Virus record (IMG/VR): IMGVR_UViG_3300033146_004974
Coordinates: 1-64,000 of that record
Direction: 5' to 3' (one strand)
Origin: a virus
DNA length: 64,000 nt
Part shown: piece after piece, positions 9,432 through 64,000 of the stretch
Layout: each line of letters opens with the position of its first letter
How positions within the stretch are numbered: the stretch's first letter is position 1
The notes under the pieces: model-generated
What the model saw: only the letters and a program-made list of their open reading frames with translations
Told to the model about the DNA's origin: nothing
Database searches by the model: none
Program-made: the position numbers and the translations under genes

Positions 9432-12359
9432 GTGGCTGGTGAAATTAATTTTGATCAAACTATAGTAACGCGCGATAACATGAGGGCAGAGAAAAAAGCT
9501 CTTGAAGAATCTTCAAGCGAGAATGCTATACCTGATGCCAAGGAACACAATGATTCTTCAAAAAGTTCTTATCGCAACCAATGTACGCTTTTAGTAGCAG
9601 CAAAAAAATTGGCAGAAGCTAATGCGAATAATCCCGACTTCGGATACAAAAATTTTATTCCATTAAAAAGTGGTTCTGGGAAAAGAACTTCAACATTTCT
9701 TGCGAGGAAAGGTGTCAACGAACTTTTTTCACTTGATAGTGCACAAGCTTCGTCATTAATCCCAAGAATCCGTTTATTTAAAAGTTTCCCGCTAGAGAAT
9801 CCTGAAGATTTGACCAACACAAGAGATGTTGAATTTAAGTTTCGTTCACATTTTTCAGATTTTTCCTTTAACTACAACACCTTAACTCTTTCAAACAACT
9901 TACAAGAAGATGATATAACACTTGGTGTTCCGAAAGATGTTGGGCTAAAGAGCTTTACAATAACTGTTGAAGGAGGCGATTTTACAACAAGGAATTTAAT
10001 TCAAGCAGAATTGACGATTGTCATGCGTTCACTTGAAGATTTGCTTGATCACTGCAATTATGAAATCCATGATGGTAAGGAGTATAAAGTAAGGTATATA
10101 GATCTTGCTTCGCTACCTCTAAATGGTGCTGAACTTTGGAAGTTTGATCCTTATTATTATACAATAAAAGCGGTTATAGGGTGGGCCAAACCTTCTGGGG
10201 ATGTTTTGACAAGAACTCTCTGGGAGAATATTGATGGGTTTACGACGACATATGCTTTGAATGTTATTGACCATGAAATCAATATGAATGAAAATGGCCA
10301 AGTGGAACTAAAAGTGACTTACAAGGGTACAGCGGACGCCTTGATGCTGTCTGATAGAACTAACATCCTAAGCAATCCCGAAATAAGACAATTAGAATTG
10401 GATTCGATTGAGATCAAAAAGAAAGAGCTGACTTCAACAAAAGAAAAAATCGAAGTTGAAGGGGAACTTTCTAAACAGTATGGCCAAGAGCGGTGGGAAA
10501 AAGTCGAAAAAAATCTTGGTGATACAACACTAGAAGAGATAGAAGGCGATATGGATGTTGGATATATATCTGCTGGTTCAAGATATACCGACAATCATTA
10601 TAAAAGCGCTATAGAATTGGCACGCGATCAGAAGAAACGAATTGCCAAAAATCGTGAAAAATATGTCGAAGATAATGGAGATTTGTTGGGCAGCGATTTG
10701 TTTGAAAAAAAAGAGACGATTGATAAACATCTAGAAGAGGTGCAACAGGAACGCTCCAATGTTCTAAACAAGTTAAGAATTAGTAAAAACAAACGCTATC
10801 AAGATATCATTCAAGGGATGTTGGAGCGTGGAAGAGTTTTTTATGTCGATATCCCGAAGCACGATATTGAATTTATTCATAGCGTTTTGGAAGTTAACAA
10901 TCTTTCATTTGGTATGTTTGACAATTTTGTTCGTGGCCTCGAAACAACTGACGTAGCAACTTTGAGCAGAAATGAATTGCAAGAGTCTGCCGCTGCCAGA
11001 TTCCCATTCCAGAATATCAAAATTGTTTCAAGCGACTTACCATTTGATTCTGTTGTGACACTTTTTGGCACTGCAAATTTGCAAAAAGAAGTTGATGGCC
11101 TTTCAATGAGTGATGAACAGGATGAGCAAGCGATTCACAAATTGGGTCAAAAAACAATTGCCGAAAGAACTCATGGATTTTTTAAGGGTGAAGGGGTAGA
11201 CAACGTATTAGAAGATGTTAGAGAAATTGATGATTTCTTCGAGGGGGATAACCCTGAATATACTCGGAATACATTTGTCTTCCTTGGTGACATTATTGAA
11301 GAGGCATTAAACCCATTATATTCTATTGAAACTCCATTCCCCTTCATAAAGAATATGACAATTTTATTGGGAGATATCCAGCTTTTTTCTGGCGATAGAA
11401 AATTTTCGATTAATATTGCAGATTTGCCAATTTCTTTTGAACTTTTTTTTGAGTGGTTTTTGAATAAAATTGTGAAACCGCAGAGAAACAAGTATCATTT
11501 GAGGGAATTTCTTTCTGATATTGTCGCTGAGATCGTTCCGGCTGCCATTAAATCACAATGTTTTGAAAATAGGATGTTCCGTTTAAACCAGATTGATGTC
11601 AGCACTTTTACGCTTCAAACAAAAAATGGAGAAAACCCTATTGCCAATCTTGTTCAAACACCACATCAAAATTTAAACAGAAGACTTGACCTAGAAAGGA
11701 GGGATGTTATAGATTTCTTCCAGCAAAGTTATTTAGCAAGTTTCAAAACAGATAAGACAGATTTTACATATGTTTTATTAAATTCTGGGCAGGTAAATGA
11801 TGGGAATTTCAATGGAGATCCTATAGAAGATTTTGAACAAGGAATTTATCATTTTTGGATTGGTAACAGTAGAGGGTTATTGAAAACAATTAAGTTTAAA
11901 AACAACACTTTGGCACATGTCCGTGAGGCTAATCTGCAAAAGGTAGATTCAAAACAATTAGATATTATTGCCAAATATTATGATGTTGAAATGACAATGA
12001 TTGGCAATAGCCTATTTTTGACAGGACAACTAATTTATATCAATCCAACTCTTTTTGGTTATGGAGACCCAGCAAATGTTAATTCTATTGCGTACAAATT
12101 GGGAATTGGTGGTTATTATTTAATAACTAGAGTTGAAAGTGAATTCACCAACGGTTCTTTTGAAACAGTTATTGACGCTAAATGGCAATCTTTTGTTAAA
12201 GAAAATGGTGATGAAGGTGAGGCTGGTGGAAGAAAAGTTAACGCATTTGATATAGCACCAGATATTGAGGTTGTATTGCCGAAAAAAGAAGAATATCACT
12301 CATCTTTAGAAAACGTAGTAAATACAATTAAAAAACGGCTAGAAGAAGATGGCGATTAA
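9432..12359 (+). CDS. large baseplate hub-like protein
   Basis: 975 aa; C-terminal MTMIGNSLFLTGQLIYI and GGYYLITRVESEF..FETVI resemble hub (gp27/gpD-type) C-termini. Confidence 0.6.
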   Translation: MAGEINFDQTIVTRDNMRAEKKALEESSSENAIPDAKEHNDSSKSSYRNQCTLLVAAKKLAEANANNPDFGYKNFIPLKSGSGKRTSTFLARKGVNELFSLDSAQASSLIPRIRLFKSFPLENPEDLTNTRDVEFKFRSHFSDFSFNYNTLTLSNNLQEDDITLGVPKDVGLKSFTITVEGGDFTTRNLIQAELTIVMRSLEDLLDHCNYEIHDGKEYKVRYIDLASLPLNGAELWKFDPYYYTIKAVIGWAKPSGDVLTRTLWENIDGFTTTYALNVIDHEINMNENGQVELKVTYKGTADALMLSDRTNILSNPEIRQLELDSIEIKKKELTSTKEKIEVEGELSKQYGQERWEKVEKNLGDTTLEEIEGDMDVGYISAGSRYTDNHYKSAIELARDQKKRIAKNREKYVEDNGDLLGSDLFEKKETIDKHLEEVQQERSNVLNKLRISKNKRYQDIIQGMLERGRVFYVDIPKHDIEFIHSVLEVNNLSFGMFDNFVRGLETTDVATLSRNELQESAAARFPFQNIKIVSSDLPFDSVVTLFGTANLQKEVDGLSMSDEQDEQAIHKLGQKTIAERTHGFFKGEGVDNVLEDVREIDDFFEGDNPEYTRNTFVFLGDIIEEALNPLYSIETPFPFIKNMTILLGDIQLFSGDRKFSINIADLPISFELFFEWFLNKIVKPQRNKYHLREFLSDIVAEIVPAAIKSQCFENRMFRLNQIDVSTFTLQTKNGENPIANLVQTPHQNLNRRLDLERRDVIDFFQQSYLASFKTDKTDFTYVLLNSGQVNDGNFNGDPIEDFEQGIYHFWIGNSRGLLKTIKFKNNTLAHVREANLQKVDSKQLDIIAKYYDVEMTMIGNSLFLTGQLIYINPTLFGYGDPANVNSIAYKLGIGGYYLITRVESEFTNGSFETVIDAKWQSFVKENGDEGEAGGRKVNAFDIAPDIEVVLPKKEEYHSSLENVVNTIKKRLEEDGD

Positions 12360-13401
12360 GAAAAAAAATATTCAATTTAAAAAGCTTAAGGATCATTTCA
12401 AAAGAAATAAGAAAAGATTTAATAGCATTTCATTGCTTGAAGATAAAAGATTCTATGGCAAAGTGGATGCTCAAGGAGATTTGGTGATGCCTTCAGAAAA
12501 TTTCCTGAAGGTGAGCCGATACAATCAAAAAGTTTTTGCATTAGATTTTGTTATCCATTCTTTAGACAATTTGTTAAATGCTCTTTATAAAAAAATATCA
12601 TTTGGGAGAATTAAACAAGATTCTGTTCTGTTTGGGCTAAGACCCGTTTCCGGTTGGGAAAGTCTTGATCAGCTTTTCAAGAACCATTTGAACATTGCTT
12701 ACAATTATTATGTTCATAAGTTTATTCAAGAAAATATTTTTATCGAAAGTGTATCATTTTTTTTGGATAAATTTCTTCACTTTTATAATCAACAAATGTT
12801 CACGATCAATCGTTCAACATATATCAAAAATTCCACTTGCCCCAACGAAATGAGTGGTTTTATTATCAACCTTAATAAGCAAAATGAAAGATGGCCTTCA
12901 GACAGATTTTTTAATGATTGGTTAATCTTGGCTAATTCATTTGGTTTTTACGTTGACAATGAGCGCCCATGGAGGATTATTGCCAATTTAAATTCACAAG
13001 TAATCATGCAAGAAACTGCTGAATCGATGTTTAAAAACAAATTCTATAACATTGAGCTTTCTGAAATTGAGAATATGCAACTTTGTCTTTGGCAAATTTA
13101 CTCAAACGTGGTCAAGCTCCGACCCGAAGTTGTCAAGCCATATGTTAACAAAAATTATTCAACGAAAGCAAGAAGTTTCAAACCAAACCAACTGAGTCTC
13201 AAACAATTCGTGGACAAGCTTGACAGACACGGGTGGATAATGGTGTACTTGCAAACGCGAGCAATCGAGTTAAAGGTGCTACACAAGCTTGACAAAAGCA
13301 TAATTGATAGCGAGGTTGCGACTTTTGACACAATCGAAATGAGGTTTGGAATTTTAAGCGCTGTGAGATATATTAACAACTTTTTGGGAAATATAAAATG
13401 A
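12349..13401 (+). CDS. hypothetical protein (possibly structural)
   Basis: 350-aa ORF overlapping both neighbours. Confidence 0.65.
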   Translation: MAIKKKNIQFKKLKDHFKRNKKRFNSISLLEDKRFYGKVDAQGDLVMPSENFLKVSRYNQKVFALDFVIHSLDNLLNALYKKISFGRIKQDSVLFGLRPVSGWESLDQLFKNHLNIAYNYYVHKFIQENIFIESVSFFLDKFLHFYNQQMFTINRSTYIKNSTCPNEMSGFIINLNKQNERWPSDRFFNDWLILANSFGFYVDNERPWRIIANLNSQVIMQETAESMFKNKFYNIELSEIENMQLCLWQIYSNVVKLRPEVVKPYVNKNYSTKARSFKPNQLSLKQFVDKLDRHGWIMVYLQTRAIELKVLHKLDKSIIDSEVATFDTIEMRFGILSAVRYINNFLGNIK

Positions 13402-14564
13402 TTTATCACATTTTTTTTGAGGGTGAGCAAATGGTTGCTTACTATTCTCAAGAAACTGGGCTTGTTGATGCAAAGGTTCTTCCCAATGAAGAACCTTTTT
13501 CAATTTGGGATATTTCTCCTGGGACATTGAAATTTTTTGAAGGAAAAGAATACAAGATTCTCAGTATTGAAAACGACCTATCAACTCTTGCAAAAAGGGC
13601 AGGCTTGGAAGAACAGTGGGAACAGAATATTCAACGAAATCAGGCGATTTTCAATTCAATACAGACTTCACATGTTTTTGTTTCAAGGCCAGTATTCAAA
13701 TATTTCCCAAGACACATTCTGGAAAAGTATTTGTTCTTGAAATGTGAATTGATGAAAAATTGGATAAAGCCAATCAATCTTCATCATAAACAAAAATTGG
13801 CAATTGTTTGCAAAGATATTGAAACAAATGTCTTAAATATTTCAAAACTTCATGGGAACCATTTGTTCCAAAGAATTCGTTTTAATCCTTTTGGAGGAAA
13901 AACTGGGCGGTTTGTTTTAAAAGAAAATTCTTTCCCAATCATGAACTTGAAAAAAGAAGAAAGATTTAAGATTATTCCAAACAACGATTTCTTTTTAGAA
14001 ATTGATTATAATGCAATTGATATAAGATCGTTTCTATTCTTGTGTGGGATTGAACAACCATTACATGATCCTCACGAATGGCATCGTCAAAAGTTGTTCC
14101 CTAATTTTTCAAGACAAGAGGTGAAACAAATTTTTTTCAAATGGTTGTATGGTGGGAAATGTGCTGAAGAAGTTGACACTGCCTTAAACAAGCTGTATTG
14201 CCCCTCTAAGCTCGCACAATGGAAACGCAAGCAAGAGTCCATAAAAACTGTTGAAAGCAATCTGGGAGTGAATGTGGAAGGATTTGACATGATTGTGACA
14301 GATCCTTTTGGAGAGAGTGCAATTGCAGATGAAAGAAGAGCCAATTCTTATTTGATGCAAAGGACAAGTGCTAGCATATTCTCAAGAGGTCTTGTTAGAG
14401 TCTGGGAGATGTTGAGAGGAAAAAGAAGCAAGATTGTTTATGCAATTCATGACAGTGTGGTCATCGACTTTGCGCATGAAGATGAAGGCATGATTGGCGA
14501 CCTTAAAAAAGCCTTTGAAAACTGTGAGTTGGCACATTTTAAAGCGAATGTGAAAAAACTTTGA
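13398..14564 (+). CDS. minimal family-A DNA polymerase-like protein (palm/fingers only)
   Basis: KTGRF, motif A DYNAIDIR, motif B RQEVKQIFFKWLYG, ANSYLMQRTSA, motif C IHDSVV; no exonuclease motifs seen. Confidence 0.8.
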   Translation: MIYHIFFEGEQMVAYYSQETGLVDAKVLPNEEPFSIWDISPGTLKFFEGKEYKILSIENDLSTLAKRAGLEEQWEQNIQRNQAIFNSIQTSHVFVSRPVFKYFPRHILEKYLFLKCELMKNWIKPINLHHKQKLAIVCKDIETNVLNISKLHGNHLFQRIRFNPFGGKTGRFVLKENSFPIMNLKKEERFKIIPNNDFFLEIDYNAIDIRSFLFLCGIEQPLHDPHEWHRQKLFPNFSRQEVKQIFFKWLYGGKCAEEVDTALNKLYCPSKLAQWKRKQESIKTVESNLGVNVEGFDMIVTDPFGESAIADERRANSYLMQRTSASIFSRGLVRVWEMLRGKRSKIVYAIHDSVVIDFAHEDEGMIGDLKKAFENCELAHFKANVKKL

Positions 14565-14583
14565 ATTTCATGTCGCTTTTCGC

Positions 14584-14612
14584 TTGATTTTTGGCCAAAA
14601 GTATGATATAAT
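14584..14612 (+). promoter_or_regulatory. sigma70-type promoter at the start of the long non-coding region
   Basis: TTGATT-N17-TATAAT with TG just upstream of -10; spacer contains palindrome TTTTGGCCAAAA. Confidence 0.65.
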
Positions 14613-15050
14613 CAAGGAACATCAAACATGTTGATAAGGACAGTTTGAAACATATATTAAAAAAAAATAAAGTTTAACAATTCAATTTTATAATAAAAAG
14701 ATTTCACAATAACAATCCAAAACACAAAGTCTTCCAAATAAATTTAAGGGCCGACCTCTGTCTTTTGATAAATCAAAAGAAATTTCCCAAGTTTTATTTG
14801 AAGCAGATACTTATTAAAAAACCTTTTGAAAAAAATGTTAAATTGTAACTTAGAAAGAAAAGAGTTCTAAAAAGGTCATAAACAAGTTGATAATATCTAA
14901 GAGTGATTTGGGATCAGATTTAAAATTTATAAAAATAAAAGAAAGTCTATCCCAGCATTTGAGATGGTAAAAATCCCAGAGAGAGAATGGTGAACAAGTT
15001 CGCTGTAAGAGCGAAAGATTGCACTAATAGTGTGGAATATAGAGAAAATT

Positions 15051-15106
15051 TTAAAACCACGCAAATTCATAGCGTGCTTGACAGATGCGCCGGACGGTGT
15101 TACAGT
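15051..15106 (+). promoter_or_regulatory. phage promoter family member (upstream of tRNA-Lys)
   Basis: TTAAAAC..AATTC..TTGACA-N17-TACAGT. Confidence 0.7.
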
Positions 15107-15128
15107 GTGTGCATGACTTGAGGTTGAA

Positions 15129-15200
15129 GGGACTTTAGCTTAACGGTAAAGCAACTGACTTTTAATCAGTAGATTCTGAGTTCAAATCTCAGGAGTCCCA
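15129..15200 (+). tRNA. tRNA-Lys (anticodon TTT), CCA not encoded
   Basis: GGGACTT/GAGTCCC acceptor stem, ACTGA-CTTTTAA-TCAGT anticodon arm, CTGAG-TTCAAAT-CTCAG T arm. Confidence 0.92.
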
Positions 15201-15296
15201 TGACAAGTAAAAGAGGAGGACAGGGATTATAAAAACATATCCCAGTGGAAATTGATTTGTAAAAGGTTATATTTTTTTAAAGGACAAGGAAAGAAG

Positions 15297-15569
15297 ATGA
15301 TTACAAACTTAAAGCAATTGGTTGAAAATATCCCAGAAGAGTTTAAAGATCTTACGACAAAGAGAGCAAATGTTCGTTTTGAAGGCGAAACAAGCACTAT
15401 CGAACTCAAAAAAGATGAAGGTTATGAGGCAATATACACTTATTCAGATGAGAATGGAATTTTTGTGCGGATTACAACTCCTAAAACTTCCAATTGGAAT
15501 GCGATGATTAGACAACTTGGAACAATGATGTCCAAGTCCCACGTGATTCTTCATGATTTTGTGAGCTGA
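15297..15569 (+). CDS. hypothetical protein
   Basis: AAGGA SD before ATG 15297. Confidence 0.6.
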   Translation: MITNLKQLVENIPEEFKDLTTKRANVRFEGETSTIELKKDEGYEAIYTYSDENGIFVRITTPKTSNWNAMIRQLGTMMSKSHVILHDFVS

Positions 15570-15571
15570 GA

Positions 15572-16409: not shown

Positions 16410-17276
16410 ATGGCTTTTAATTTAGACGCAATCAAACAAAAATTTCAGGACGCCAGCGAAGGGAAAAACATCAAGTCTGGAGGCAACAACCAGACATTTT
16501 TCTTTAAATGTCAAGAGAACGAAACAAGAATAATCCGCCTCATTGAACACCCAGAAGTGAAATTGGAAAATGATTTTGCCGAAGAAAGGCATTTTCATTA
16601 TGTGACAATTCCAGGTCAAAAGGAGCGCGTTGCTTTCATTTGTCCTAAAAGAACCTATGGTGGCGAATGTCCAATCTGCAATCTTTCTTACGCATTGTGG
16701 GATCAGGTCAAAGAGAGATGGCCAAGTCGTGATGAAAGATTTAACAATCCAGAAGCAAACAGGGTTTCACGCCTTGTTAAGTCGCTTTTCTCTGTTCATC
16801 GCTTTTATTCTTACGTCCTCCCACGGAAATTGAACGAGAATGAACAAGGACCTCTTATTTGGGGTTATTCTAGCAACGTTCATGATAAACTCATGAAATA
16901 TTTCGTTGATGAAGATTGGGGCAACATTGCCGATGTTCATGAAGGCTTTGACATCAAAGCAGAGTTGGTAAAGGGGAAGCAATTCAATGAGTACAGCATT
17001 AAAATTCGTCCAAAGTCTGTTCCATTGGCTTCTTCAGACGAAGAAATCCAGGAGATTTTTGACAAAACATCATTGATTTCTTCTGGCGAAATGGCAAAAT
17101 ATTTTGTCAAAATGCCTCATGAAGAAATGGTAAATCTTGCTGACAAGTTCTATAAGGGATATGTTCTGGCAACTGGCGGAACTGTCGAAGATGTTTCAAA
17201 CGAAAGTATGAGAGGCGGAGACGATGACGCTTCGACAAAATTTGCAGCATTTGATGATCCAGATATTCCATTCTAA
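16410..17276 (+). CDS. single-stranded DNA-binding protein (gp32-like)
   Basis: IIRLI, HFHY, CPKRTYGGECPIC zinc site, DWGNIADVHEGFDI, acidic tail ending DDPDIPF. Confidence 0.88.
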   Translation: MAFNLDAIKQKFQDASEGKNIKSGGNNQTFFFKCQENETRIIRLIEHPEVKLENDFAEERHFHYVTIPGQKERVAFICPKRTYGGECPICNLSYALWDQVKERWPSRDERFNNPEANRVSRLVKSLFSVHRFYSYVLPRKLNENEQGPLIWGYSSNVHDKLMKYFVDEDWGNIADVHEGFDIKAELVKGKQFNEYSIKIRPKSVPLASSDEEIQEIFDKTSLISSGEMAKYFVKMPHEEMVNLADKFYKGYVLATGGTVEDVSNESMRGGDDDASTKFAAFDDPDIPF

Positions 17277-17287
17277 AGCGCGTTAAA

Positions 17288-17319
17288 AATCCTGCTTCAC
17301 CATTTTGTGAAGCAGGATT
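17288..17319 (+). terminator. hairpin/terminator after SSB
   Basis: AATCCTGCTTCAC...GTGAAGCAGGATT 13-bp stem. Confidence 0.7.
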
Positions 17320-17333
17320 CAAAAGTTTTTAAT

Positions 17334-17389
17334 TTGAAACACGCCACATTTTCACCATGCTTGACAAAACAGCGCTATTGTGGCATGGT
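17334..17389 (+). promoter_or_regulatory. phage promoter family member
   Basis: TTGAAAC 27 nt before TTGACA-N17-CATGGT. Confidence 0.65.
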
Positions 17390-17426
17390 GGGAAATGTGG
17401 TGCAAACCTTAGCACATGGAGAGAAA

Positions 17427-18188: not shown

Positions 18189-18190
18189 AG

Positions 18191-20728: not shown

Positions 20729-21226
20729 ATGGACTTCAAGACAATTATGCAAACTGCACCAATGGAACTTGTCAATAAAGTTGAAGCATTGAAGGATGTT
20801 AAGGAAAGCAATATTCATCATCCTGAAATGAATGCTTATCAGCACACAATGATTGTGGTTGATCGACTTGACAAAACAAGGGATAAGAATTTAATTCTCA
20901 GTGCCTTTTTCCATGATATGGGAAAAGTTGGCACTAAAAAGAAGATCAACAACATTGTTGGAGAAATATTCGTCAATCATGACAGAATTTCTTCTGAACT
21001 TGTAAACAAATTTTCGAAATTTGTTCGAAGAATGAAAGCTGATCCAGAGATTGTTTCGAAAATTGTGAAGCACCATATGCAAATGAAGTTTTTTCACAGC
21101 TTAACGAAGGAACAAAGATCTCTTTTGAAGGAAGATGCTGAACTGTTCCGTATGATGGTCATTTTTCGTGAAGCAAATGATATGACAAGAGAATTCAATG
21201 TTCGCAGCTTTCATGAGTACCGATGA
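20729..21226 (+). CDS. stand-alone HD-domain phosphohydrolase
   Basis: HHPEMNAYQHT, FFHDMGK, HHM; same pattern as the HD domain of the CCA enzyme at 57062. Confidence 0.8.
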   Translation: MDFKTIMQTAPMELVNKVEALKDVKESNIHHPEMNAYQHTMIVVDRLDKTRDKNLILSAFFHDMGKVGTKKKINNIVGEIFVNHDRISSELVNKFSKFVRRMKADPEIVSKIVKHHMQMKFFHSLTKEQRSLLKEDAELFRMMVIFREANDMTREFNVRSFHEYR

Positions 21227-22185
21227 GATATTTAATCGTCGATATGACGAATCAATTTATTCGCTCTTGGATTGTCGCGCCACAATTGGACAATGATGGG
21301 AGACCGATTGGTGGCGTAATTGGTTCGTTGCAAATCATTCAAAAGGTGATTAAAAAAACCGTTCCTGATCGTGTTATAATCGTTTGGGATGAAAAGGGAG
21401 GTTCTGATAAGCGAAAAGCTATCAATGAGAATTACAAAGGCAACAGAGGATTCCTCAAGCCATTGCACAGCGGTTCTATGACGAATAAAGAAATTATGTC
21501 AAACCGTTTTTGGCAAGAGGATAGAGTGAGGGAATATTTAAGTGCCTTACCATTTTTGCAATTTAAGTTTGCAGGGGTTGAAGCAGATGATGTGATTGCT
21601 CAAATTAAAAACCGTTTGCCAGATGATGAAAAAATCATCATGTCAGCGGACCATGATATGTTTCAATTGTTGGATAAAAAGACGTTGGTTTATAAACCGA
21701 CTCCTAGAAAAACAATTGAAGACAAAATGTTGAACACGTTCGACATGATTAAAGAATATGGAATTCATCCGAATAATTTTGCTTTGGCAAAAGCAGTTGC
21801 AGGAGATAATTCAGACAACATTAAGGGAATCAAACGGGTCGGTTTTAAAACGTTGCTGAAAGAATTCCCAGAATTTTCTAAATCAGAAGAAATAAGTGCT
21901 GCGAAGCTTGTTGCAATGGCAAATGAGAAGAGGAAGACATCAAAGAAAAAGATTTTCGAAAATCTTGCGGAGAATTTAGAGCTGCTTGAGGAGAATTATT
22001 CCATCATTCAGTTGAAGAATCCTTACACAACAGATCATATCGAATTTGAATTTAAAGATCTTCGTGAAAAGGAGGTAAGATTTGATAAGAATCGTTTCCT
22101 TTCGATGTTTGAAAATGATAAAATTAAGGAGATGTTTTATATAACCTTGATCAAAGCATGTGATAGAATTATCAAGGCTATATAG
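21223..22185 (+). CDS. 5'-3' exonuclease / flap endonuclease (T4 RNase H-like)
   Basis: LIVD, NYKGNR, EADDVIA, SADHD, GDNSDNIKGIKRVG. Confidence 0.92.
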   Translation: MRYLIVDMTNQFIRSWIVAPQLDNDGRPIGGVIGSLQIIQKVIKKTVPDRVIIVWDEKGGSDKRKAINENYKGNRGFLKPLHSGSMTNKEIMSNRFWQEDRVREYLSALPFLQFKFAGVEADDVIAQIKNRLPDDEKIIMSADHDMFQLLDKKTLVYKPTPRKTIEDKMLNTFDMIKEYGIHPNNFALAKAVAGDNSDNIKGIKRVGFKTLLKEFPEFSKSEEISAAKLVAMANEKRKTSKKKIFENLAENLELLEENYSIIQLKNPYTTDHIEFEFKDLREKEVRFDKNRFLSMFENDKIKEMFYITLIKACDRIIKAI

Positions 22186-24617: not shown

Positions 24618-25565
24618 ATGCGCGAATTTAAAAAGCCAGATGTTGTCATGGCACTAACCCTAAACATCAACAATCCTTGGAGTAGGATTGTTATCAAATC
24701 GGCTGTTGTTAACGATAGTCCACTTTATTCAGTTAGAAAATCTCAGCTTGATTACGAATTTGGTGAGAAGTTTTTAGCGGCGGAAACTGAAGAGGAAAAA
24801 GAAGAGATTCGCCAAGAGGCCATCGAGAAGATTCATTGCTTACTCAACCACAAAGGCGAAAATCGAAGGAAGTATGTCATTGCCAGAACTGCACTCATTT
24901 TTTATGATGAAGCAACGACAAGTAGGTTTTTAGATTGGTTTGAGGAATGGGAAAAAGAATTCGGAAGGGAGACGGCACTTGTTGCAAAATCTCCTTATTT
25001 CAAATTTGAGAAGTACCGCGTCAATGTTTCTATTATGTTGACAACAGAAGAGTACAAACAATTTATTGAAGATTTCCCTTGGCAAGCATATGTGAGAGTT
25101 TACAAGGAATGGTTGCCGAGTGAAGGGCCTGAAATAGAATGGGATGGGGATTATATGGATGAAAGGTACATGCTTTGGGATTCATCAAAACCAGAGTTTG
25201 AACCGGAAAAAGTTGTCCCAATGGTAGAGGAGAAATACGAATGGTACGAGAAACCTGATTTAGCGCTCCCTGATGGATATGATCCAAGAGGGTTGAAGTT
25301 TTCAAAGCAGGTGACGAATCTTGAAGCAACTTATTACAATGCTGTTAAGCAAGAGAAGAAAGAGGATCTCCTTGAACTCTTGAAGACTTCTTTAAAGCGA
25401 AAGAAGGCGGCTAATGAGATTAACGAACTTATTTCAAAAAATTACGACAACTACCTCTCATCTGATGGTGATTTGCTATCTGATTTAAACAAACTTGAAC
25501 CAAAACCTTCCAAGAAAACTGTTGAGAAAGTTATAGAACTTTTTAAGGAATTCAATGAAAGCTGA
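24618..25565 (+). CDS. hypothetical protein
   Basis: Long ORF, SD GAGGA, overlaps helicase start. Confidence 0.7.
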   Translation: MREFKKPDVVMALTLNINNPWSRIVIKSAVVNDSPLYSVRKSQLDYEFGEKFLAAETEEEKEEIRQEAIEKIHCLLNHKGENRRKYVIARTALIFYDEATTSRFLDWFEEWEKEFGRETALVAKSPYFKFEKYRVNVSIMLTTEEYKQFIEDFPWQAYVRVYKEWLPSEGPEIEWDGDYMDERYMLWDSSKPEFEPEKVVPMVEEKYEWYEKPDLALPDGYDPRGLKFSKQVTNLEATYYNAVKQEKKEDLLELLKTSLKRKKAANEINELISKNYDNYLSSDGDLLSDLNKLEPKPSKKTVEKVIELFKEFNES

Positions 25566-26904
25566 TTTTGACAGAATTTTCCAAGAGAAATTGGTCCAGA
25601 TAGTTTTTTTTGACCACAAATTTGCAACTCAAATCGAAGAATTGATTAAATTTGATTATTTTGATTTGGAGCATCTTAGTGGATTCATGAGGATTTTTTA
25701 TTCTTATAAAAAAGAATATGGGATCTTTCCTCAAAGTATTCTGTTTGGTTCAATTTTGAAGCTTGAAATGCCGAAGAAGACAAATGACGACATTATTGTC
25801 CGGGATAAGGCATTGGCATTTCTGGAGACGATTAAAGACAACAAACCAATCGAGGAAGAAAAATATATTAAAGATAAATTTCTGGATTTCGTTAAAAATA
25901 AGGCGTTGATCGAAACATTCCAAGAGTGCATCCCATTGATTGAGCGAAACGAAGTTGAGACAATTCGCGATAAAATTGGCGAAGTACTCAAAATGGGGAT
26001 TGATCAAAATTTTGGCCACGATTATTTCAACGATTTTGAAGACAGGTATAGAGCAAATTCAAGGGAGGTTATTTCTACTGGTTGGAAAGAAATTGACGCA
26101 ATAACAAAGGGTGGGCTTGCGAAGAAGGAATTGAGCGTCATCATTGGTTCAACGGGGAGTGGGAAATCTTTTTTGTTGACTCATCTTGTAGCAGAAGCAG
26201 TCAAACAAGGTTTGAATGCAATTTACTATTCTTTTGAACTTTCAGAAGGTGTAATTGGGCAAAGAATTGATGGAAAATTGAGTGGTATTGCCCTAGATTT
26301 GCTGGAGTATAAAAAAGATGTTGTCGAATCGAAGATTAACAACATTTTCAGTAAAACTGGAGCAATTCTTGTCATAAAAGATTATCCACAATTTTCTGTG
26401 ACTGTTCAAACGCTTAAAAATCATATTCATCGCCTTAAATCTGTTAAGAATTTCTACCCAGATTTGGTTGCGGTTGATTATGGAGATCTTTTAAAGGGCA
26501 GAGATGATTCTTTTGAGGCTACAAGGCACAATTTGAAGCGCAATTTTGATATGCTTCGGAATATGGCTGCTGAATTGAATATTGCTGTTGTAACAGCAAC
26601 GCAAACGAATAGAAAAGGGTTGACACAAAAAGTTGTAACACTTGAGGATATTAGCGAAAGTTATGGCAAAACACAGAATGCTGATTTGATTGTGACAATT
26701 TCCAGAACTCTTGAAGATAAAGAAGAGAATACTGGAAGGATGTTAGTGGCAAAGAATCGCAACGGGCCAGATGGAATTGTTTTTCCAATGGAGATTGACT
26801 ATGGACATTCGGTAATAAATGTGTTAGAAAGACAGACGGGAGCAGTTTCAAAGCGGATTGATATGGACAAGATCCAGGATGCAATTCGTGGAAGAAAAAA
26901 ATGA
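25555..26904 (+). CDS. replicative DNA helicase (DnaB/gp41-like)
   Basis: Walker A GSTGSGKS, YSFEL, VDYGDL, TATQTNR, AKNRNG. Confidence 0.95.
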   Translation: MKADFDRIFQEKLVQIVFFDHKFATQIEELIKFDYFDLEHLSGFMRIFYSYKKEYGIFPQSILFGSILKLEMPKKTNDDIIVRDKALAFLETIKDNKPIEEEKYIKDKFLDFVKNKALIETFQECIPLIERNEVETIRDKIGEVLKMGIDQNFGHDYFNDFEDRYRANSREVISTGWKEIDAITKGGLAKKELSVIIGSTGSGKSFLLTHLVAEAVKQGLNAIYYSFELSEGVIGQRIDGKLSGIALDLLEYKKDVVESKINNIFSKTGAILVIKDYPQFSVTVQTLKNHIHRLKSVKNFYPDLVAVDYGDLLKGRDDSFEATRHNLKRNFDMLRNMAAELNIAVVTATQTNRKGLTQKVVTLEDISESYGKTQNADLIVTISRTLEDKEENTGRMLVAKNRNGPDGIVFPMEIDYGHSVINVLERQTGAVSKRIDMDKIQDAIRGRKK

Positions 26905-26917
26905 GATTGCTCTCTGG

Positions 26918-26990
26918 GGGACTCTAGCTTAATGGTTAAAGCACCTGACTCATAATCAGTAGATTCTGAGTTCGAATCTCAGGAGTCCCA
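26918..26990 (+). tRNA. tRNA with CAT anticodon (elongator Met or Ile2), CCA not encoded
   Basis: GGGACTC/GAGTCCC acceptor stem, CTGA-CTCATAA-TCAG arm, TTCGAAT T loop; G1:C72 pair argues against initiator. Confidence 0.9.
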
Positions 26991-31895: not shown

Positions 31896-32692
31896 ATCTA
31901 TCAAATTTAGAATATGATTTGCCATATGATCCTTGGATGTTGCCGACAAGCGAGACGACAACGATTATTGAAAATGCAATCAATTCATGTGCAATGGCTG
32001 GATGTACTGATATATGGATTGTGGCACCAAATTTCATTCATCCAATGTTGAAGAAAATATTTGGTGATGCCATTTTGAGTCCAAGGATATATACAAATGC
32101 GATAGAAATTAAAAAAAAGAATGCAAAAACGGGATTTAGAACCGCCTTTCATGCGAACAAAAGAATAATCCCTCTATTCTATATTCAGTTGGAACCAGAC
32201 GATATGATATATAATGCTAATACAGCATTCTCTATTTTATATGCATCTTATATTCCATCAAGATTAATAAAGAATTTTTCCAATTATGCGTTACCAGATA
32301 TGTTTTACGTTCATCCTCCATTCACTGTCAATGATCCGAATGAACTGAAACAAGTATCACACTTTAAAAGATTAGATAAAGCAAATTTCGGAGAATTGCT
32401 TTGCATAACTGATGGGGAAAAGAATGCTGCGAATGGGTATCAACTTCCTTTTGCATATCATTTGAATTCGCTTGAAAGAATGCACGAAAATTATAAAAAC
32501 AGTAAAGAGAAAACTGTTCAAAATATGTTGAAAGGGATTGATTACAAAAATTTTGAAATAAGTTGGCACCATGATTTGAGAAATTGGGAAGATTATTGTA
32601 GTTTTCTTATGAACAAAGAGCGAAGAAAAAAAACAGTGTTGAAGAGAAGACTCTTGAACAATCAAGTTTTAAACAGAATAGGAAAAGAATGA
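31823..32692 (+). CDS. sugar-phosphate nucleotidyltransferase-like (GT-A fold) protein, degenerate
   Basis: AGIIPL..PWMLP..IIENAINSCAMAGCTDIWIVA. Confidence 0.5.
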   Translation: MDFSKISKERYSHFSFVAGIIPLLNLSNLEYDLPYDPWMLPTSETTTIIENAINSCAMAGCTDIWIVAPNFIHPMLKKIFGDAILSPRIYTNAIEIKKKNAKTGFRTAFHANKRIIPLFYIQLEPDDMIYNANTAFSILYASYIPSRLIKNFSNYALPDMFYVHPPFTVNDPNELKQVSHFKRLDKANFGELLCITDGEKNAANGYQLPFAYHLNSLERMHENYKNSKEKTVQNMLKGIDYKNFEISWHHDLRNWEDYCSFLMNKERRKKTVLKRRLLNNQVLNRIGKE

Positions 32693-35600
32693 AAAAGATT
32701 AATTTTGTCAATCTTCATGCGCATTCAGGATTCTCTATTTTCGATGGTTTCGGAATGCCCGGAGAATATATGGATTATGCCTTCGAGAATGGCATGAATG
32801 CCCACGCCTTAACAGACCACGGCAATATGAATGGCTTTTCATACCAAATCTTACACGCAAAGAAGATGAAGGAAGCTGGGAAGGTATTAAAGCCGATTTA
32901 TGGTGTTGAAGCTTATTTTGTACCTTCTGTGAAAGAATGGAAAGCGGCGATGGACCAAAAGCAGTTTTCCAAGAGGGCCAAAAAGATTGATGATGATGCA
33001 AGAAGATTAAATCCAGAAGAGTTGGCCACCTTAAATAAAAGAAGGCATGTTGTTCTTCTGGCCCAGGACAAAAAGGGTTTGAAAAACCTTTTTCAGCTAG
33101 TATCAAAATCACACATGGGAGACAATTTTTATAGAAAGCCAAGAATTGACTTGGATTTAATTAAAAAACATAATGAAGGTTTGGTCTGTACTTCTGCTTG
33201 CCTTGGCGGGTTAATGAATATGGAGTGGTGGATCAATGAAGATAAAGATAGAGCCATTGAGCAAATGGCTTTCTGGGCAGACCGATTTAAACAGATTTTT
33301 GGCAGACGTTTTTTTATCGAACTTCAATGGAACGATATTGAAGAACAGCATTTGACCAATATTATCAATATTGAAATTGCAAAAAAACTCGAATTAGAAC
33401 TTATTTCAACTGCTGATTGTCATTATCCAACACCTGAAGATTTTCAGAATAGATATTTGTATAACAAGCTTGGCTGGTTGAATTCATATAACAATGAAGA
33501 GTTCGTAATGCCAGAAAGCGCAGAAGAAATTGGCTACCATTTGTATCCCAAAAATGGCGAGCAAATGATGGAGTCTTTTGAAAAATCTTCTGAAAAGATG
33601 GGATACAAATATGACAAGGATTTGGTCTTAAAAAGCATAACAAATGCATATAAAATTTCTGAAGAGTTGATTGGGAATATCGAATTCGACACAAAAGTTC
33701 GACTGCCTGATTTTGTTGTCCCAGAAAATGTTGATGTCAATGAACATCTGAGGGAAGTTGCTGTAGCAGGACTACTGTCAAAAAATCTTGACTCGAAAGA
33801 ATATCGCGAAAGATTAGAAGAAGAATTGGAAGTAATCGAGAGTCAAGATTTTTCAAAATATTTCCTTACTTCAAGAGCATATATCAAAGAGGCAAAGGAT
33901 ATAACTTTGATTGGCCCTTCACGCGGTTCAGCGGGTGGTTCATTAGTTTCATATGTGCTTGGCATTACCCAACTTGATCCTATTAAATGGGGATTGCAAT
34001 TTTCAAGATTCTTGACAAGAGGTGCTAAAGGATATCCAGATATTGATACTGATTTTGGTGACAACTTGGCTGTACATGATCACTTAATAAAAAAGTGGGG
34101 TGAGCAGAGTGTTGTTTCAATTACAAACTTTAACAGGTTGAAGTTTAAATCTGTTTTGAAAGATCTTTCAAAACTATTTGGAGTCAGTTTTGAGGAGGTC
34201 AATGCAGTAACAACGGTGATGGAGGAAGAAGCGAAAGGGCCTGCAATGGCTGCAAAAGGTATTAAGGTAGGTGCATATACATTGAGTGGCGACGAGCTTA
34301 GAACGCATTCTGAGACCTTAAAGGCGTATCTCAAAAAGTATCCTGATGTTGATAAATATATTGACACACTGCAAGGTCAAATTCGTTCTGTTAGTCGTCA
34401 TGCTGGTGGAATGTTGGTTTCAAATAATTTAATTGAAGAAATGCCATTAATTCGCTCTGCTGCTTTATCAAAAGATAAGAAAGAAGCCAGAAAAAAACAA
34501 GGATTGAATGGTTATATCCTTCAGACGCCGTGGTCTGAAGGGCAGAATGTACGCCACCTAGAACCATTAGGGTTCATTAAATTTGATAGACTTGGCTTAT
34601 CAACATTGTTGATGTTCCAAAGCTGCATCGAAAACATTTTGGAAAAGCAAAATGGGCAAGAGGCTTCTTTTGACGAAGTGCAGAAGTGGTATAATAAAAA
34701 TATGTCGCCAGATGTTTTAGATTTGGATGATCAAAAAGTTTGGAAATATGTTTTTCAAGATGGGAGATGGCCAGGAATTTTTCAATTTACTGAAAGTGGT
34801 GCTCAAGAGCTTTGTAAGTCCGTTGCGCCAACAAACATTAACGAATTGTCTGCTGTTACTTCATTATACCGCCCAGGGCCTTTAGGGGCTGGTGCTGATA
34901 AAGATTATTTGACTTACAAAAATAATCCGTTGAGGATTAGATATGAACATAAAATTCTTGAAGGGATTTTGTCTAAAACATATGGGATGATTGTTTATCA
35001 AGAGCAGATTTCTGCAATTGCTTCACAACTTGGTGGGTTAACGAGTGATGAAGGGCAATTTTTCAGAAAGTTGTTGACAAAAAAAGGAACTGGGAAAGAT
35101 GGCTACCTTCAAACTTTAGAAGAAAAATTCTTAAAAGGTTGCGAACTAAATGGGATGAGCAATCTCATGGCCAATAAACTTTTGGAAAAATTAGTTTATT
35201 TTGCCGCATATGGTTTCAATGAAATTCACGCCATTGCTTATTCAATTATTTCGTATCAATGCGCATGGTTTTTTACATATTATTCTGCTGAATGGTTAGC
35301 GGCAGTTTTAGAAAGGGTTCCTGAGAAGCAAAAAGTTTCCGCAATCAATGCGACAAAATCATATGGTTTTGCAATCAAATCGCCAGATGTTAACCAATCA
35401 AGCAGAAAATGGAAGCCAATTGGAGATGGCTCAACAATTGCGCAACCTCTTTCAGCAGTCAAAGGAATTGGTGCCAAAGCGATTGAGGAAATCTTTGAAC
35501 AACGTCCGTTGACGATGGACAAATTGTTGTTTGGAATTAGTAAAAGGAAAGTTAACAAAAAGGTGTTAACATCTTTGTTTAAGTCTGGTGCACTTGATGA

Positions 35601-36099
35601 TCTAATCGATTTGGAAGTATACAGTAATTTTAAACACTTTTATTTGGCAGCTTTAGAAACAAGGCCAAAGACTAGAAAAGCGCTTGAAAAAAAGATCAAA
35701 GAAACGAAAGGTTGTGACGATTTTGATGAACAAGAGTATATCCAATTCAAGGTTGAATCATCAGGGATTTACCCAGTTTTTTATATTGTAGATCCAGAAA
35801 TGGAGGACAGATTAAAAGAATTCAACATGAAATGTCTTGGCGAATTTGATGGGACAACAGACCAACTATTCTGGGGGATAGTAAAGGAGACAGAGTTAAA
35901 AAGGACTAAAAGAGGAAGTTTATATAACGTTGTAACAATGATTGATACAACATTTAAGGAGATCAAGATCAATTGTTGGTCATGGCAAGAGACTGATGTG
36001 GTTCACAAAAATCATGTATATTTTTTCAGAGTCGATCATGCTCCAAAATGGGGTTTTTCGACAAGAAGTTTCAAAAAGAATTTTAGAATGATTAAGTAA
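32689..36099 (+). CDS. dnaE: DNA polymerase III alpha subunit
   Basis: PHP domain NLHAHS/LTDHG, SRGSAGGSL, PDIDTD, RHAGG, KFDRLGL, YGFNEIHA; no intein seen. Confidence 0.97.
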   Translation: MKKINFVNLHAHSGFSIFDGFGMPGEYMDYAFENGMNAHALTDHGNMNGFSYQILHAKKMKEAGKVLKPIYGVEAYFVPSVKEWKAAMDQKQFSKRAKKIDDDARRLNPEELATLNKRRHVVLLAQDKKGLKNLFQLVSKSHMGDNFYRKPRIDLDLIKKHNEGLVCTSACLGGLMNMEWWINEDKDRAIEQMAFWADRFKQIFGRRFFIELQWNDIEEQHLTNIINIEIAKKLELELISTADCHYPTPEDFQNRYLYNKLGWLNSYNNEEFVMPESAEEIGYHLYPKNGEQMMESFEKSSEKMGYKYDKDLVLKSITNAYKISEELIGNIEFDTKVRLPDFVVPENVDVNEHLREVAVAGLLSKNLDSKEYRERLEEELEVIESQDFSKYFLTSRAYIKEAKDITLIGPSRGSAGGSLVSYVLGITQLDPIKWGLQFSRFLTRGAKGYPDIDTDFGDNLAVHDHLIKKWGEQSVVSITNFNRLKFKSVLKDLSKLFGVSFEEVNAVTTVMEEEAKGPAMAAKGIKVGAYTLSGDELRTHSETLKAYLKKYPDVDKYIDTLQGQIRSVSRHAGGMLVSNNLIEEMPLIRSAALSKDKKEARKKQGLNGYILQTPWSEGQNVRHLEPLGFIKFDRLGLSTLLMFQSCIENILEKQNGQEASFDEVQKWYNKNMSPDVLDLDDQKVWKYVFQDGRWPGIFQFTESGAQELCKSVAPTNINELSAVTSLYRPGPLGAGADKDYLTYKNNPLRIRYEHKILEGILSKTYGMIVYQEQISAIASQLGGLTSDEGQFFRKLLTKKGTGKDGYLQTLEEKFLKGCELNGMSNLMANKLLEKLVYFAAYGFNEIHAIAYSIISYQCAWFFTYYSAEWLAAVLERVPEKQKVSAINATKSYGFAIKSPDVNQSSRKWKPIGDGSTIAQPLSAVKGIGAKAIEEIFEQRPLTMDKLLFGISKRKVNKKVLTSLFKSGALDDLIDLEVYSNFKHFYLAALETRPKTRKALEKKIKETKGCDDFDEQEYIQFKVESSGIYPVFYIVDPEMEDRLKEFNMKCLGEFDGTTDQLFWGIVKETELKRTKRGSLYNVVTMIDTTFKEIKINCWSWQETDVVHKNHVYFFRVDHAPKWGFSTRSFKKNFRMIK

Positions 36100-62162: not shown

Positions 62163-62204
62163 GATAAATATTACCAATTTCCATTCTACAAATTGAGGAA
62201 ATAT

Positions 62205-63170
62205 ATGAGTTTTATTATACCTCTTCAAGAGATTTTTGAAGAAGAAACCCCAGAAGAAATTCAGGGAATCATGAAAAACATTCCTCAAGAAGTTTTAAAC
62301 ATTTTGAGGGATGTTCCTCCAGAAGTCGAAACTAAAGAGCCTGCAAATAATGTTGACTCTTTGGTAAGACTTGCTAGCAAAAACGAATTGGATACGATTA
62401 GAGAAATACCGATCCCTGATTTAAATCCAAACTCATTGAACGCTGCGCTAAAAACATGTATTGCAAAAGATTATCGAGAGCTTTTTGAATATCTTTATGG
62501 TATTTTTAAGAAAACGCCAATTCATAGCAAGAAGACAAAGGTCAACGGATTGTTTGAATTTTCAGTCGCCCAAAATTCGATATATTTTGTCGAACTGTTA
62601 GCGAACAAACACAAATATCTTGATCCTTTCCCACCGATGAATCGCGCAATTTCTCATGGATTTGTTGATATTATCACAAAATTATTAAAAATTTTCCCAG
62701 AAATAGATAACATTTATGATTTTCAGAAATTTTTAACTCGTGCGATAAGGGATGATAATCTCATCTCCATCAAGTTTTTTTTGGATAAGGGTGCACTCAT
62801 TCATTCTGATGTTGATAAACCATTTTTGGAGGCGTCAAAATTTTCACCCAACTTCCTCAAATTCTTTTTTGAAAGCGGAGAAACAGTCCAGGAAGGAACA
62901 ATGCGGCAAGCCCTATTGAACGCAGTACATGAAGGTTATCCAGACATTGTTGAATTGCTTGTCAAAAATGGAGCCAGCCTAGAGGAAGAGGACTTAGAAT
63001 TCTTTTTCGAATATGATGGCGAAGATTTTTTTGATTATGTTCAAATCTTTATTGAAAATGGTTTAAGCCCTCGTGCACATGATGATTATTTTTTGAAGAT
63101 GGCTGTGGATCAATATGACACATTTATAATCAATTTTTTGCTTAGGGAGATTGCAAAAAATGATTTTTAA
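62205..63170 (+). CDS. ankyrin-repeat protein
   Basis: AISHGFVDIITKLL, AIRDDNLISIKFFLDKGA, AVHEGYPDIVELLVKNGA. Confidence 0.85.
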   Translation: MSFIIPLQEIFEEETPEEIQGIMKNIPQEVLNILRDVPPEVETKEPANNVDSLVRLASKNELDTIREIPIPDLNPNSLNAALKTCIAKDYRELFEYLYGIFKKTPIHSKKTKVNGLFEFSVAQNSIYFVELLANKHKYLDPFPPMNRAISHGFVDIITKLLKIFPEIDNIYDFQKFLTRAIRDDNLISIKFFLDKGALIHSDVDKPFLEASKFSPNFLKFFFESGETVQEGTMRQALLNAVHEGYPDIVELLVKNGASLEEEDLEFFFEYDGEDFFDYVQIFIENGLSPRAHDDYFLKMAVDQYDTFIINFLLREIAKNDF

Positions 63171-64000
63171 TATTTTGGAAGAAGCAGGGAGCTTGAAAGG
63201 CAATGCGCAAATCGAATTCCTCAAAAATCACCGAAGCAATGAAAGATTGCAGTTCTTTTTGGAAGTTGTTTGCACAGATGTCAGGTTAAAATGCAAATTT
63301 CCTTCTGCAACCTGCTGCAAAAATGCAGAAGAATTTGATGCAGAAGAAAGTTTGGAACAAGAAATGAGGAACGCAATTGCGAATTTGTTTGGGACCGATG
63401 AGTTGCGTTCGAGGTTGACGAATCTTGCAGAAAGGTCTACAAATTTTCAATTAAAGTGGATTAAAAGAATCTGGAACAAAAAGTTGAGAATAGGAATTGG
63501 CAAAAGAGTTTACGAGAAAGTGTGGGGAAAACCAAAAACAAATTTTTCTGTTTGTTTATGCAAAAAGTGGAAGGGGAAAGAATTTGCAACTGATGAATGG
63601 ATTGCTGAACCAAAATTGGACGGAGTTCGTTGCATAATCTTGATTGACCAAAACGGAAATGCTATTGCTAAATCAAGGAATGGCAAAGTGCTCCCTGGCG
63701 CGAAACATGTTGCACAAATTTTAGGACAAAAAGTTTCCAACATTGTTCTAGATGGAGAAATTGTTTACAAAGATTTCAGAACATCAGTTTCATTGGTCAA
63801 ATCTGAATCGAATTGGGAATCTTCAAAGCTGATTTTTCATGCGTTTGACGGAATGCCATATGATCTTTGGCCCCAAACTTGGGAGAAAGATATAAAATTC
63901 AGAAAAAGGTGGTTGCGTGAACAATTGAGCCAAGTTGATTCAAAGAATATTGAACTTGTTCCATCATTTTTGATTTCAGAAAAGGGGAGCGATTTTGATG
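63160..64000 (+). CDS. ATP-dependent DNA ligase, 3'-truncated by the window
   Basis: Translated by hand from ATG 63160: KLRIGIG, EPKLDGVRC (KxDG), SRNGK, LDGEI, FHAFD. Confidence 0.9.
   Translation, partial: MIFNILEEAGSLKGNAQIEFLKNHRSNERLQFFLEVVCTDVRLKCKFPSATCCKNAEEFDAEESLEQEMRNAIANLFGTDELRSRLTNLAERSTNFQLKWIKRIWNKKLRIGIGKRVYEKVWGKPKTNFSVCLCKKWKGKEFATDEWIAEPKLDGVRCIILIDQNGNAIAKSRNGKVLPGAKHVAQILGQKVSNIVLDGEIVYKDFRTSVSLVKSESNWESSKLIFHAFDGMPYDLWPQTWEKDIKFRKRWLREQLSQVDSKNIELVPSFLISEKGSDFD

Follow-up and report, generated by a model that had tools for sequence, protein, structure and literature searches.

Why would a phage that carries a full-length replicase also encode a second, much reduced DNA polymerase, and what might such an enzyme do? 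The question is raised by the first 64 kb (64,000 nucleotides; hereafter the window) of the 85,850-base virus record IMGVR_UViG_3300033146_004974, whose completeness CheckV puts at 42%. Nearly all long open reading frames (ORFs) of the window lie on the plus strand, where T4-like tail proteins (sheath, tube and baseplate hub) are followed by a replication and nucleotide-metabolism block that includes ribonucleotide reductase (RNR), ThyX, dUTPase, a ClpP-like protease and GroEL. An ORF of 388 codons (13398-14564) separates the two blocks. It overlaps the preceding ORF by 4 nt, its ATG lying on that ORF's stop, and we call its product mini-PolA. An earlier, sequence-only reading of this locus had described mini-PolA as a family-A polymerase lacking both thumb and exonuclease, and had suggested, from its altered steric gate and the lack of a recognisable primase in the window, that it is a distributive enzyme which may use ribonucleotides and which serves in primer synthesis, in gap filling or in an origin-related task rather than as the replicase.

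Here we report that the gene is, by sequence and context, a divergent new member of divPolA1, a group described in 2024 by Yutin et al. in 14 phages of 155-190 kb (PMC11348598), and that it is carried by large T4-like phages besides their full replicase. Membership in divPolA1 explains the gene, and a ribonucleotide-using or priming function for it is unlikely.

Mini-PolA resembles a shrunken Pol I large fragment

The polymerase motifs expected of family A are all present in the 388-aa (amino acid) product: TGR, the motif A aspartate, the R/K/F/Y set of motif B and the HD of motif C. When the family profile described below was compared with Escherichia coli Pol I using hhalign, residues 159-388 aligned with 656-924 (probability 96%, E 4.8e-9), pairing D203 with D705, D208 with E710, R171 with R668 and H351-D352 with H881-D882. 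Single-sequence and single-family searches gave weaker signals. Pfam PF00476 scores 22.9 bits on mini-PolA, below its gathering cut-off of 34.3, a PF00476 search of the whole record returned no match, and a PDB sequence search with the single protein found Klenow only, at E 0.13.

Very little is left where family A normally has its thumb. Only 12 residues separate DIETNVLNI (140-148) from RFNPF (beginning at 161), and I141 and F162 enclose 20 residues, as against 118 for the matching I540 and Y659 of E. coli Pol I. The anchor DIETNVLNI was equated with Pol I RIERNGVKID by way of MIERAGLRIT from Flavobacterium phage immuto in the profile alignment. Across the family the thumb remnant measures 8-39 residues.

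For the fold we used an AlphaFold2 (AF2) model built from a 143-sequence alignment (predicted local distance difference test score, pLDDT, 92.6; predicted template-modelling score, pTM, 0.90) instead of an earlier, poor one built from 17 sequences (pLDDT 65.1). Residues 143-185 are free of helices in this model, and its least confident block is an insert in the fingers (pLDDT 66). With VIA-align, 332-356 of the 388 residues superposed onto the KlenTaq and Bst large fragments (Z 24.5, root-mean-square deviation 3.6 Å), and the top 50 structural matches are DNA polymerases throughout. Foldseek returned 184 PDB matches at E<=0.001, of which the top ones are all family-A DNA polymerases; the apicoplast polymerase and Taq matched at E 4e-12. 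The structural alignment covers model residues 1-388 against KlenTaq 305-824 and Bst 316-869; because it begins at model residue 1, residues 1 to about 104 can be read as a folded stub of the exonuclease domain. No exonuclease family matched this N-terminal stub, and it contains no DxE motif. As modelled, mini-PolA is a shrunken large fragment, with a stub of about 104 residues in place of the exonuclease, no thumb and shorter fingers. The structural description given in the sequence-only reading is thus borne out, including by the comparison with Klenow-type folds that it had proposed.

Mini-PolA belongs to a large family and to divPolA1

Relatives of mini-PolA proved to be numerous. A word-indexed search gave 20 (218-394 aa, 30-39% identity), and a profile search of 1.84 billion representatives gave 292 clusters at E<=1e-30, nearly all of 360-410 aa. 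Among viral contigs, 373 of 491 matching stretches encode a relative. A hidden Markov model (HMM) made from 16 relatives, with the window protein left out, scores the ORF at 215 bits (E 8e-66), whereas the next-best six-frame piece of 12000-15300 reaches E 1.7, so the match lies far beyond chance. The catalytic and nucleotide-binding residues are widely retained: among 170 relatives D203 is kept in 170, K243 in 169, D352 in 167, R171 in 165 and Y251 in 160, and the F762 position holds Phe in 140. Part of the gene was also found in a public sequencing run (X1), as a 162-base contig 99% identical to 14161-14322 that leaves the 3' end of the gene uncovered.

In its published description, divPolA1 keeps the catalytic palm residues, has a truncated thumb and an inactivated 3'-5' exonuclease, and always accompanies a 'regular' DNA polymerase of family A, B or C, near which GroEL/GroES lie; divPolA1 itself is followed by conserved replication genes (PMC11348598). 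The window protein likewise has a truncated thumb and has lost its exonuclease, while D203, D352, R171, R239, K243 and Y251 of the palm set are kept. Downstream of it follow genes for a single-strand DNA-binding protein (SSB), a flap endonuclease (FEN) and DnaB (Table 1), in the same order as in immuto, which has polymerase (gene 1), SSB, RecA, 5'-3' exonuclease, DnaB and RNR. A second, regular polymerase, DnaE, is also present, with GroEL nearby. As for genome size, the 85,850-base record is a fragment, and its collinear relatives (G001-G003) measure 160-191 kb.

Direct comparison with immuto supports the assignment. The profile of 143 sequences, headed by the window protein, matches immuto gene 1 (L108:1-1326) with a probability of 98.8% and E 6e-17 over 280 columns, a better fit than to E. 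coli Pol I. The kinship is nevertheless a distant one. By tblastn, the window protein alone gave no match to immuto at 1e-3, and the mini-PolA of relative G001 matched it at E 4e-4 with 27% identity.

Table 1. Mini-PolA, its parts and the associated replication genes. Coordinates are window positions; residue numbers are those of mini-PolA, and equivalents those of Pol I.
Feature	Coordinates	Strand	Evidence or remarks
divPolA1-type mini family-A DNA polymerase, 388 aa	13398..14564	+	ORF, family HMM, AF2, structural alignment, hhalign
N-terminal stub, residues 1-104	13398..13709	+	Putative 3'-5' exonuclease remnant without catalytic residues
Thumb-deletion site, residues 141-162	13818..13883	+	
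TGR motif, residues 169-171	13902..13910	+	R171 = R668
Motif A, DYNAIDIR, residues 203-210	14004..14027	+	Catalytic D203 = D705
Steric-gate position, D208	14019-14021	+	D208 = E710 (hhalign)
Motif B / O-helix, R239, K243, F247, Y251	14112..14150	+	= R754, K758, F762, Y766
Fingers insert, about 19 residues (281-299)	14238..14294	+	Unique to the window copy
Motif C, HDSVVID, residues 351-357	14448..14468	+	D352 = D882; Ser at the E883 position
Putative tubulin/FtsZ-fold protein, 273 aa	15572..16393	+	blastp E 1e-18 to 1e-13 to the relatives' neighbour ORFs
gp32-like SSB	16410..17276	+	PF08804 E 1.9e-11
Separate 5'-3' exonuclease / FEN	21223..22185	+	PF02739 E 9e-25; PF01367
DnaB-type replicative helicase	25555..26904	+	PF03796 E 5.7e-26; phrog_19 E 2.5e-70
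DnaE (Pol III alpha), full-length, 1136 aa, the 'regular' polymerase	32689..36099	+	PHP, pol3_alpha, finger and HHH_6 domains
GroEL	40905-42482		Near the regular polymerase DnaE
ATP-dependent DNA ligase	63151..63999	+	Continues to 64395 of the record

The altered steric gate is a recurrent variant

The residues E710 and F762 of Pol I discriminate against ribonucleotides (PMC7581432), and the proposal of ribonucleotide use was based on the Asp that mini-PolA carries at the first of these positions. Glu was found there in 16/16 of the first relatives collected. In the larger set of 170, Glu is still the majority residue with 132 members, followed by Asp (35), His (2) and Gln (1). In a FastTree tree of the 143 full-length members, whose resolution is weak (of its 140 inner forks, 59 are open), the well-supported branches alone force at least 8 changes between Glu and Asp, and parsimony counts 18-21; the window protein belongs to a small group of 7 members on long branches, all of them with Asp. 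Within the family alignment, no consistent second change accompanies the Asp gate. Because Glu and Asp toggle repeatedly on the tree, the Asp gate is best described as a recurrent and apparently tolerated conservative variant that is not special to the window gene, and with most homologs carrying Glu, reading it as a mark of ribonucleotide use is not supported.

In a family-A enzyme that uses ribonucleotides, with its steric gate removed, one would look for loss of the acidic gate side chain (E710 to a small residue), of F762/Y766, or of both. The window protein has Asp, a conservative change, and keeps F247 and Y251. Our literature search found no published data on an Asp gate (E710D or E615D) in polymerases, so some relaxation of sugar choice may still accompany it.

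A DnaG-like primase is encoded by relatives of the phage

Family scans confirmed that the window encodes DnaE, a DnaB-type helicase and an SSB, and found no primase family in the window or among 26 ORFs from the other 21.8 kb of the record. As the record is less than half complete, with about 115 kb of the genome missing, this gap means little. In G001, a relative of 190,698 bases that is rated 100% complete and is collinear with the window from the sheath gene to an AAA ATPase gene, we scanned all 180 ORFs of at least 75 aa. The only polymerases among them are mini-PolA and a DnaE with 45% identity to that of the window. G001 also encodes a DnaG-like primase of 305 aa (phrog_47 'DNA primase', E 1.8e-36; PF08275, 28.1 bits against a cut-off of 26), whose Zn ribbon scores 22.9 bits, below its own cut-off.

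An orthologue of this primase was found in 4/4 further relatives, so that a DnaG-like primase is present in 5/5 examined. A search of the five relatives with Toprim_2 (PF13155) had given 0/5, and it was DNAG_N, the Zn ribbon and phrog_47 that subsequently revealed the primase. In G001 the terminase and portal genes are close to the primase gene, and the window's 85.8-kb, 42% complete fragment, in which no orthologue was found, does not reach this region. Of the relatives that are at least 88% complete, 3/3 have DnaE, and PolB occurs in 0/5 records. A canonical primase thus exists elsewhere in the lineage, and the idea that mini-PolA stands in for a missing one is not supported. Of the three observations that the sequence-only reading itself named as refuting it, two have accordingly been made, the prevalence of Glu among homologs and the primase.

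Mini-PolA heads a replication module and usually adjoins a putative tubulin-fold gene

To describe the neighbourhood, we counted genes within 10 kb of the polymerase at 80 loci of relatives. SSB was found at 58 of these, FEN at 49 and DnaB at 43, and mini-PolA has a fixed place at the head of an SSB-(RecA)-FEN-DnaB module.

A further gene usually follows the polymerase at once. An ORF lies downstream of mini-PolA at 77 loci, and at 58 of these the gene directly 3' of it encodes a protein of about 280 aa (for example L034:10996-11832), with an overlap of 4 nt in 41 of the 58. The protein has more than 120 homologs, all unnamed and without a Pfam domain, and neither PDB nor Pfam gave a sequence match. 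The ESM Atlas model of one family member (P0275) matches PF00091 tubulin and TubZ-like phage clusters over its whole length with template-modelling (TM) scores of 0.83-0.84, and it is because of this structure search that we assign a tubulin fold. The GTP-loop motif reads GSxxxSG instead of GGGTGTG, and hhalign against E. coli FtsZ gave a probability of 6% only. Going by the Atlas model, the neighbour looks like a short phage tubulin.

In the window, an insert of about 1 kb (14565-15571) parts the polymerase from the tubulin-fold gene. It consists of a 560-base AT-rich stretch without an ORF, a tRNA-Lys(UUU) at 15129-15200 and a 105-aa ORF at 15252-15569, for which family scans gave no match.

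Sequence features peculiar to the window copy

The window copy matches 26 of the 30 columns that are conserved in at least 90% of the family, and departs from its relatives at several other places. The spacing from Y251 to Q321, which contains the fingers insert that shows in the alignment with relatives, is 69 residues as against 45-55 in the other 142 relatives. In the exonuclease stub, positions 7, 12, 98 and 101 read D-C-C-D in 63 of 143 members and D-C-C-E in 10 more, a set that could bind a metal or be left over from the exonuclease centre; in the window copy these positions are F/M/P/K. Finally, the family's C-terminal end, GKNxG...KEI, is missing from the window copy and is intact in its closest Asp-gate relatives.

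The gene ends AAA AAA CTT TGA (region 14547-14631), so that its stop follows an A6 run, and the +1 frame stays open for 23 more codons. CTT_TGA is also the slippery word of the prfB +1 frameshift site. Past the stop, the +1 frame reads KNF...FGQKYDIIKE, faintly like the missing GKNFG...KEI end. A C-terminal frameshift nevertheless found no support in scoring: the joined product gave 215.4 bits on the family HMM as against 215.6, with 20 shuffles at 215.3-215.7; the +1 piece alone scored -1.9; and a 19-position C-terminal HMM gave it -2.2 bits, which is not among the ten best scores of 3312 six-frame pieces.

Other genes of the phage

Two ORFs of 303 and 289 aa (30984-32692, plus strand) lie immediately 5' of DnaE, the second of them kept beside DnaE in G001. 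Family scans gave no match for either, and they are possible candidates for replicase accessory subunits. A set of RNA-repair-type genes, comprising an RlaP nucleotidyltransferase, HD proteins, a CCA-adding enzyme, an Rnl2-type RNA ligase and the HAD domain of 'Swiss Army Knife' RNA-repair proteins, is spread over 18119-19327, 20729-21226, 57062-58420, 58401-59378 and record positions 75107-75601, and suggests tRNA repair during infection. A tRNA-Met(CAT) is encoded at 26918-26990. Four ankyrin-repeat proteins, which are unusual in a phage, are encoded at 17307-18188 and 62193-63170 of the window and at 64398-64946 and 79593-82235 (minus strand) of the record, the one on the opposite strand being 880 aa long. 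G001 encodes ribosomal protein S21 (L086:19304-19543) and an ORF of 4403 aa without a family (L099).

Proposed role of mini-PolA

Mini-PolA is most likely an active, DNA-templated, dNTP-using polymerase of low processivity and without proofreading. We predict the use of dNTPs because of the Glu gate and the Phe at the F762 position that prevail among the 170 relatives. Low processivity is expected by analogy, since E. coli Pol I with a truncated thumb keeps its activity at lower processivity and fidelity (Minnick 1996, as cited in PMC10061031). We think it probable that mini-PolA serves the replication module as a distributive short-patch DNA polymerase, filling Okazaki gaps together with the separate FEN and the ligase. 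A DnaG-like primase would lay RNA primers, DnaE would carry out elongation, the separately encoded FEN would remove the primers, mini-PolA would fill the short gaps that result and the phage ligase would seal them. Mini-PolA and FEN would together amount to a Pol I split into separate genes. What survives of the function first proposed is an enzyme additional to DnaE that is non-replicative and probably distributive, with gap filling as a sensible task; ribonucleotide use and primer synthesis find no support.

Several observations weigh against this role. FEN lies 3-6 genes from the polymerase and is not adjacent to it, and RecA/UvsX, known in the relatives, was not found in family scans of the ORFs of the 85.8-kb record. 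According to PMC11348598, divPolA1 also occurs beside full PolA replicases; these could fill gaps themselves, so gap filling may not be its conserved job. Ser replaces the E883 of Pol I in 107 of 143 relatives. The window copy looks, from the family alignment, like the least canonical of its family: it matches 45 of the 59 columns conserved in at least 75% of members, the fifth lowest of 143, it continues for 9 residues past position 379 as against 18-22 in relatives, and a Gly that 138 of 142 relatives share is missing from it. Both the catalytic activity and its low processivity, like gap filling itself, are things that we infer.

Rather than filling gaps, divPolA1 could extend RNA primers, or D-loops made by RecA/UvsX, by a short stretch of DNA before a swappable main polymerase takes over, much as Pol alpha or Bacillus DnaE do. 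Such a hand-off would suit a polymerase that heads the conserved SSB-RecA-FEN-DnaB block, and the regular polymerase described beside divPolA1 varies between families A, B and C (PMC11348598), leaving divPolA1 as the one polymerase of the module that stays the same. The window's record has yielded no RecA, however, and nothing in the sequence distinguishes a hand-off from gap filling; we regard this reading as unlikely, if still worth bearing in mind.

A low-fidelity repair or lesion-bypass polymerase, comparable to Pol nu or Pol theta and acting on UV or base damage, seems to us a little more doubtful still. The absence of proofreading and thumb would fit it, as would the UvdE UV endonuclease and PD-(D/E)XK nuclease of G001 and the ATP-dependent ligase and PD-(D/E)XK nuclease of the window's record. 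Against this, the gene has its fixed place among replication and not repair genes, and UvdE is far from it in G001.

More speculatively, divPolA1 might be the constant polymerase of the lagging-strand machinery, with Asp- and His-gate lineages that have relaxed their sugar selection and that extend and hand off primers, or prime as CcPol does with an SSB-type partner, and so would not be a plain gap filler. We consider this combination improbable. The proposal of the sequence-only reading, in which the Asp gate relaxes sugar choice and the enzyme uses ribonucleotides, or makes or extends primers in place of a primase, has in our view even less chance of being right, also if one supposes a partner, as CcPol needs MP. 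In its favour are the residues at the E710 position that are unusual for family A (Asp in 35 and His in 2 of 170 relatives, and His also in immuto), the SSB gene 1.8 kb downstream, and the precedent of CcPol, a family-A polymerase that is likewise trimmed and short in the thumb and that primes de novo with the ssDNA-binding partner MP (PMC7581432, PMC10061031). Yet CcPol itself keeps the residues equivalent to E710 and F762 and uses dNTPs even while priming (PMC7581432). The prevalence of Glu with its repeated swaps to and from Asp, the retention of F247 and Y251, the DnaG-like primase of all five relatives and a usual neighbour with a tubulin fold and not an OB (oligonucleotide/oligosaccharide-binding) fold all speak against it.

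Least likely of all, and very improbable, is that the window copy is decaying or inactive, for although its shortened C-terminus, missing Gly, unique 19-residue insert, altered stub residues and low conformity would suit such drift, its frame is open over 388 codons, every catalytic and nucleotide-binding residue is kept along with 26 of the 30 best conserved columns, the AF2 model is confident over the whole length and the nearest relatives are long-branched too.

The divPolA1 group is far more widespread than the 14 phage genomes of 2024 suggested, as the clusters and viral loci found here show, and the variation of its active site is now mapped with respect to the Glu/Asp gate, the Ser in place of E883 and the length of the thumb remnant. 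A naturally thumbless Pol I core of about 380 residues bears on how polymerases divide the labour of a replisome, and offers a minimal polymerase scaffold.

Comparison with known systems

Within divPolA1, the immuto protein is longer than that of the window (441 aa), has about 33 residues left of the thumb and His at the gate, and reads TSR where mini-PolA has TGR and YDA where it has HDS. A tubulin-fold gene directly downstream of the polymerase is usual in the marine subgroup, and immuto is without it. No group like divPolA1 appears among the 19 clusters into which PolA is classified in Table 1 of PMC10201439, a paper by whose account phage PolAs all seem to retain the exonuclease.

With Pol I/Klenow, KlenTaq and Bst, mini-PolA shares the fold over 332-356 residues, the TGR motif and motifs A, B and C, and presumably also the job of filling primer gaps with a 5' nuclease. 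It is about 200 residues smaller than the Pol I large fragment, lacking a thumb of about 100 residues and keeping only a stub of the exonuclease, and its fingers measure 45-55 residues in the family and 69 in the window copy, as against 82 in Pol I. Canonical Pol I also carries a fused 5' nuclease, which is here the separate FEN gene, and has E883 where mini-PolA has Ser; the sub-threshold PF00476 score is a further departure.

As described in PMC7581432 and PMC10061031, CcPol-MP of SCCmec and the Pol-SSB pairs of Bacillota resemble our system in that a mobile genome encodes a family-A polymerase, trimmed at its N-terminus and short in the thumb, with a replicative helicase and an SSB-type protein adjoining. 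CcPol appears to differ in the small OB-fold partner next to it and in the MCM-like helicase, where the window has a putative tubulin-fold protein, a gp32-like SSB and DnaB, and where the relatives have a DnaG-like primase. The divPolA2 of barbaviruses, finally, is likewise a second, divergent and thumb-less PolA beside a regular polymerase, and is set apart in its published description by an unrelated N-terminal globular domain, a variable neighbourhood and structural matches that resemble RNA polymerases (PMC11348598).

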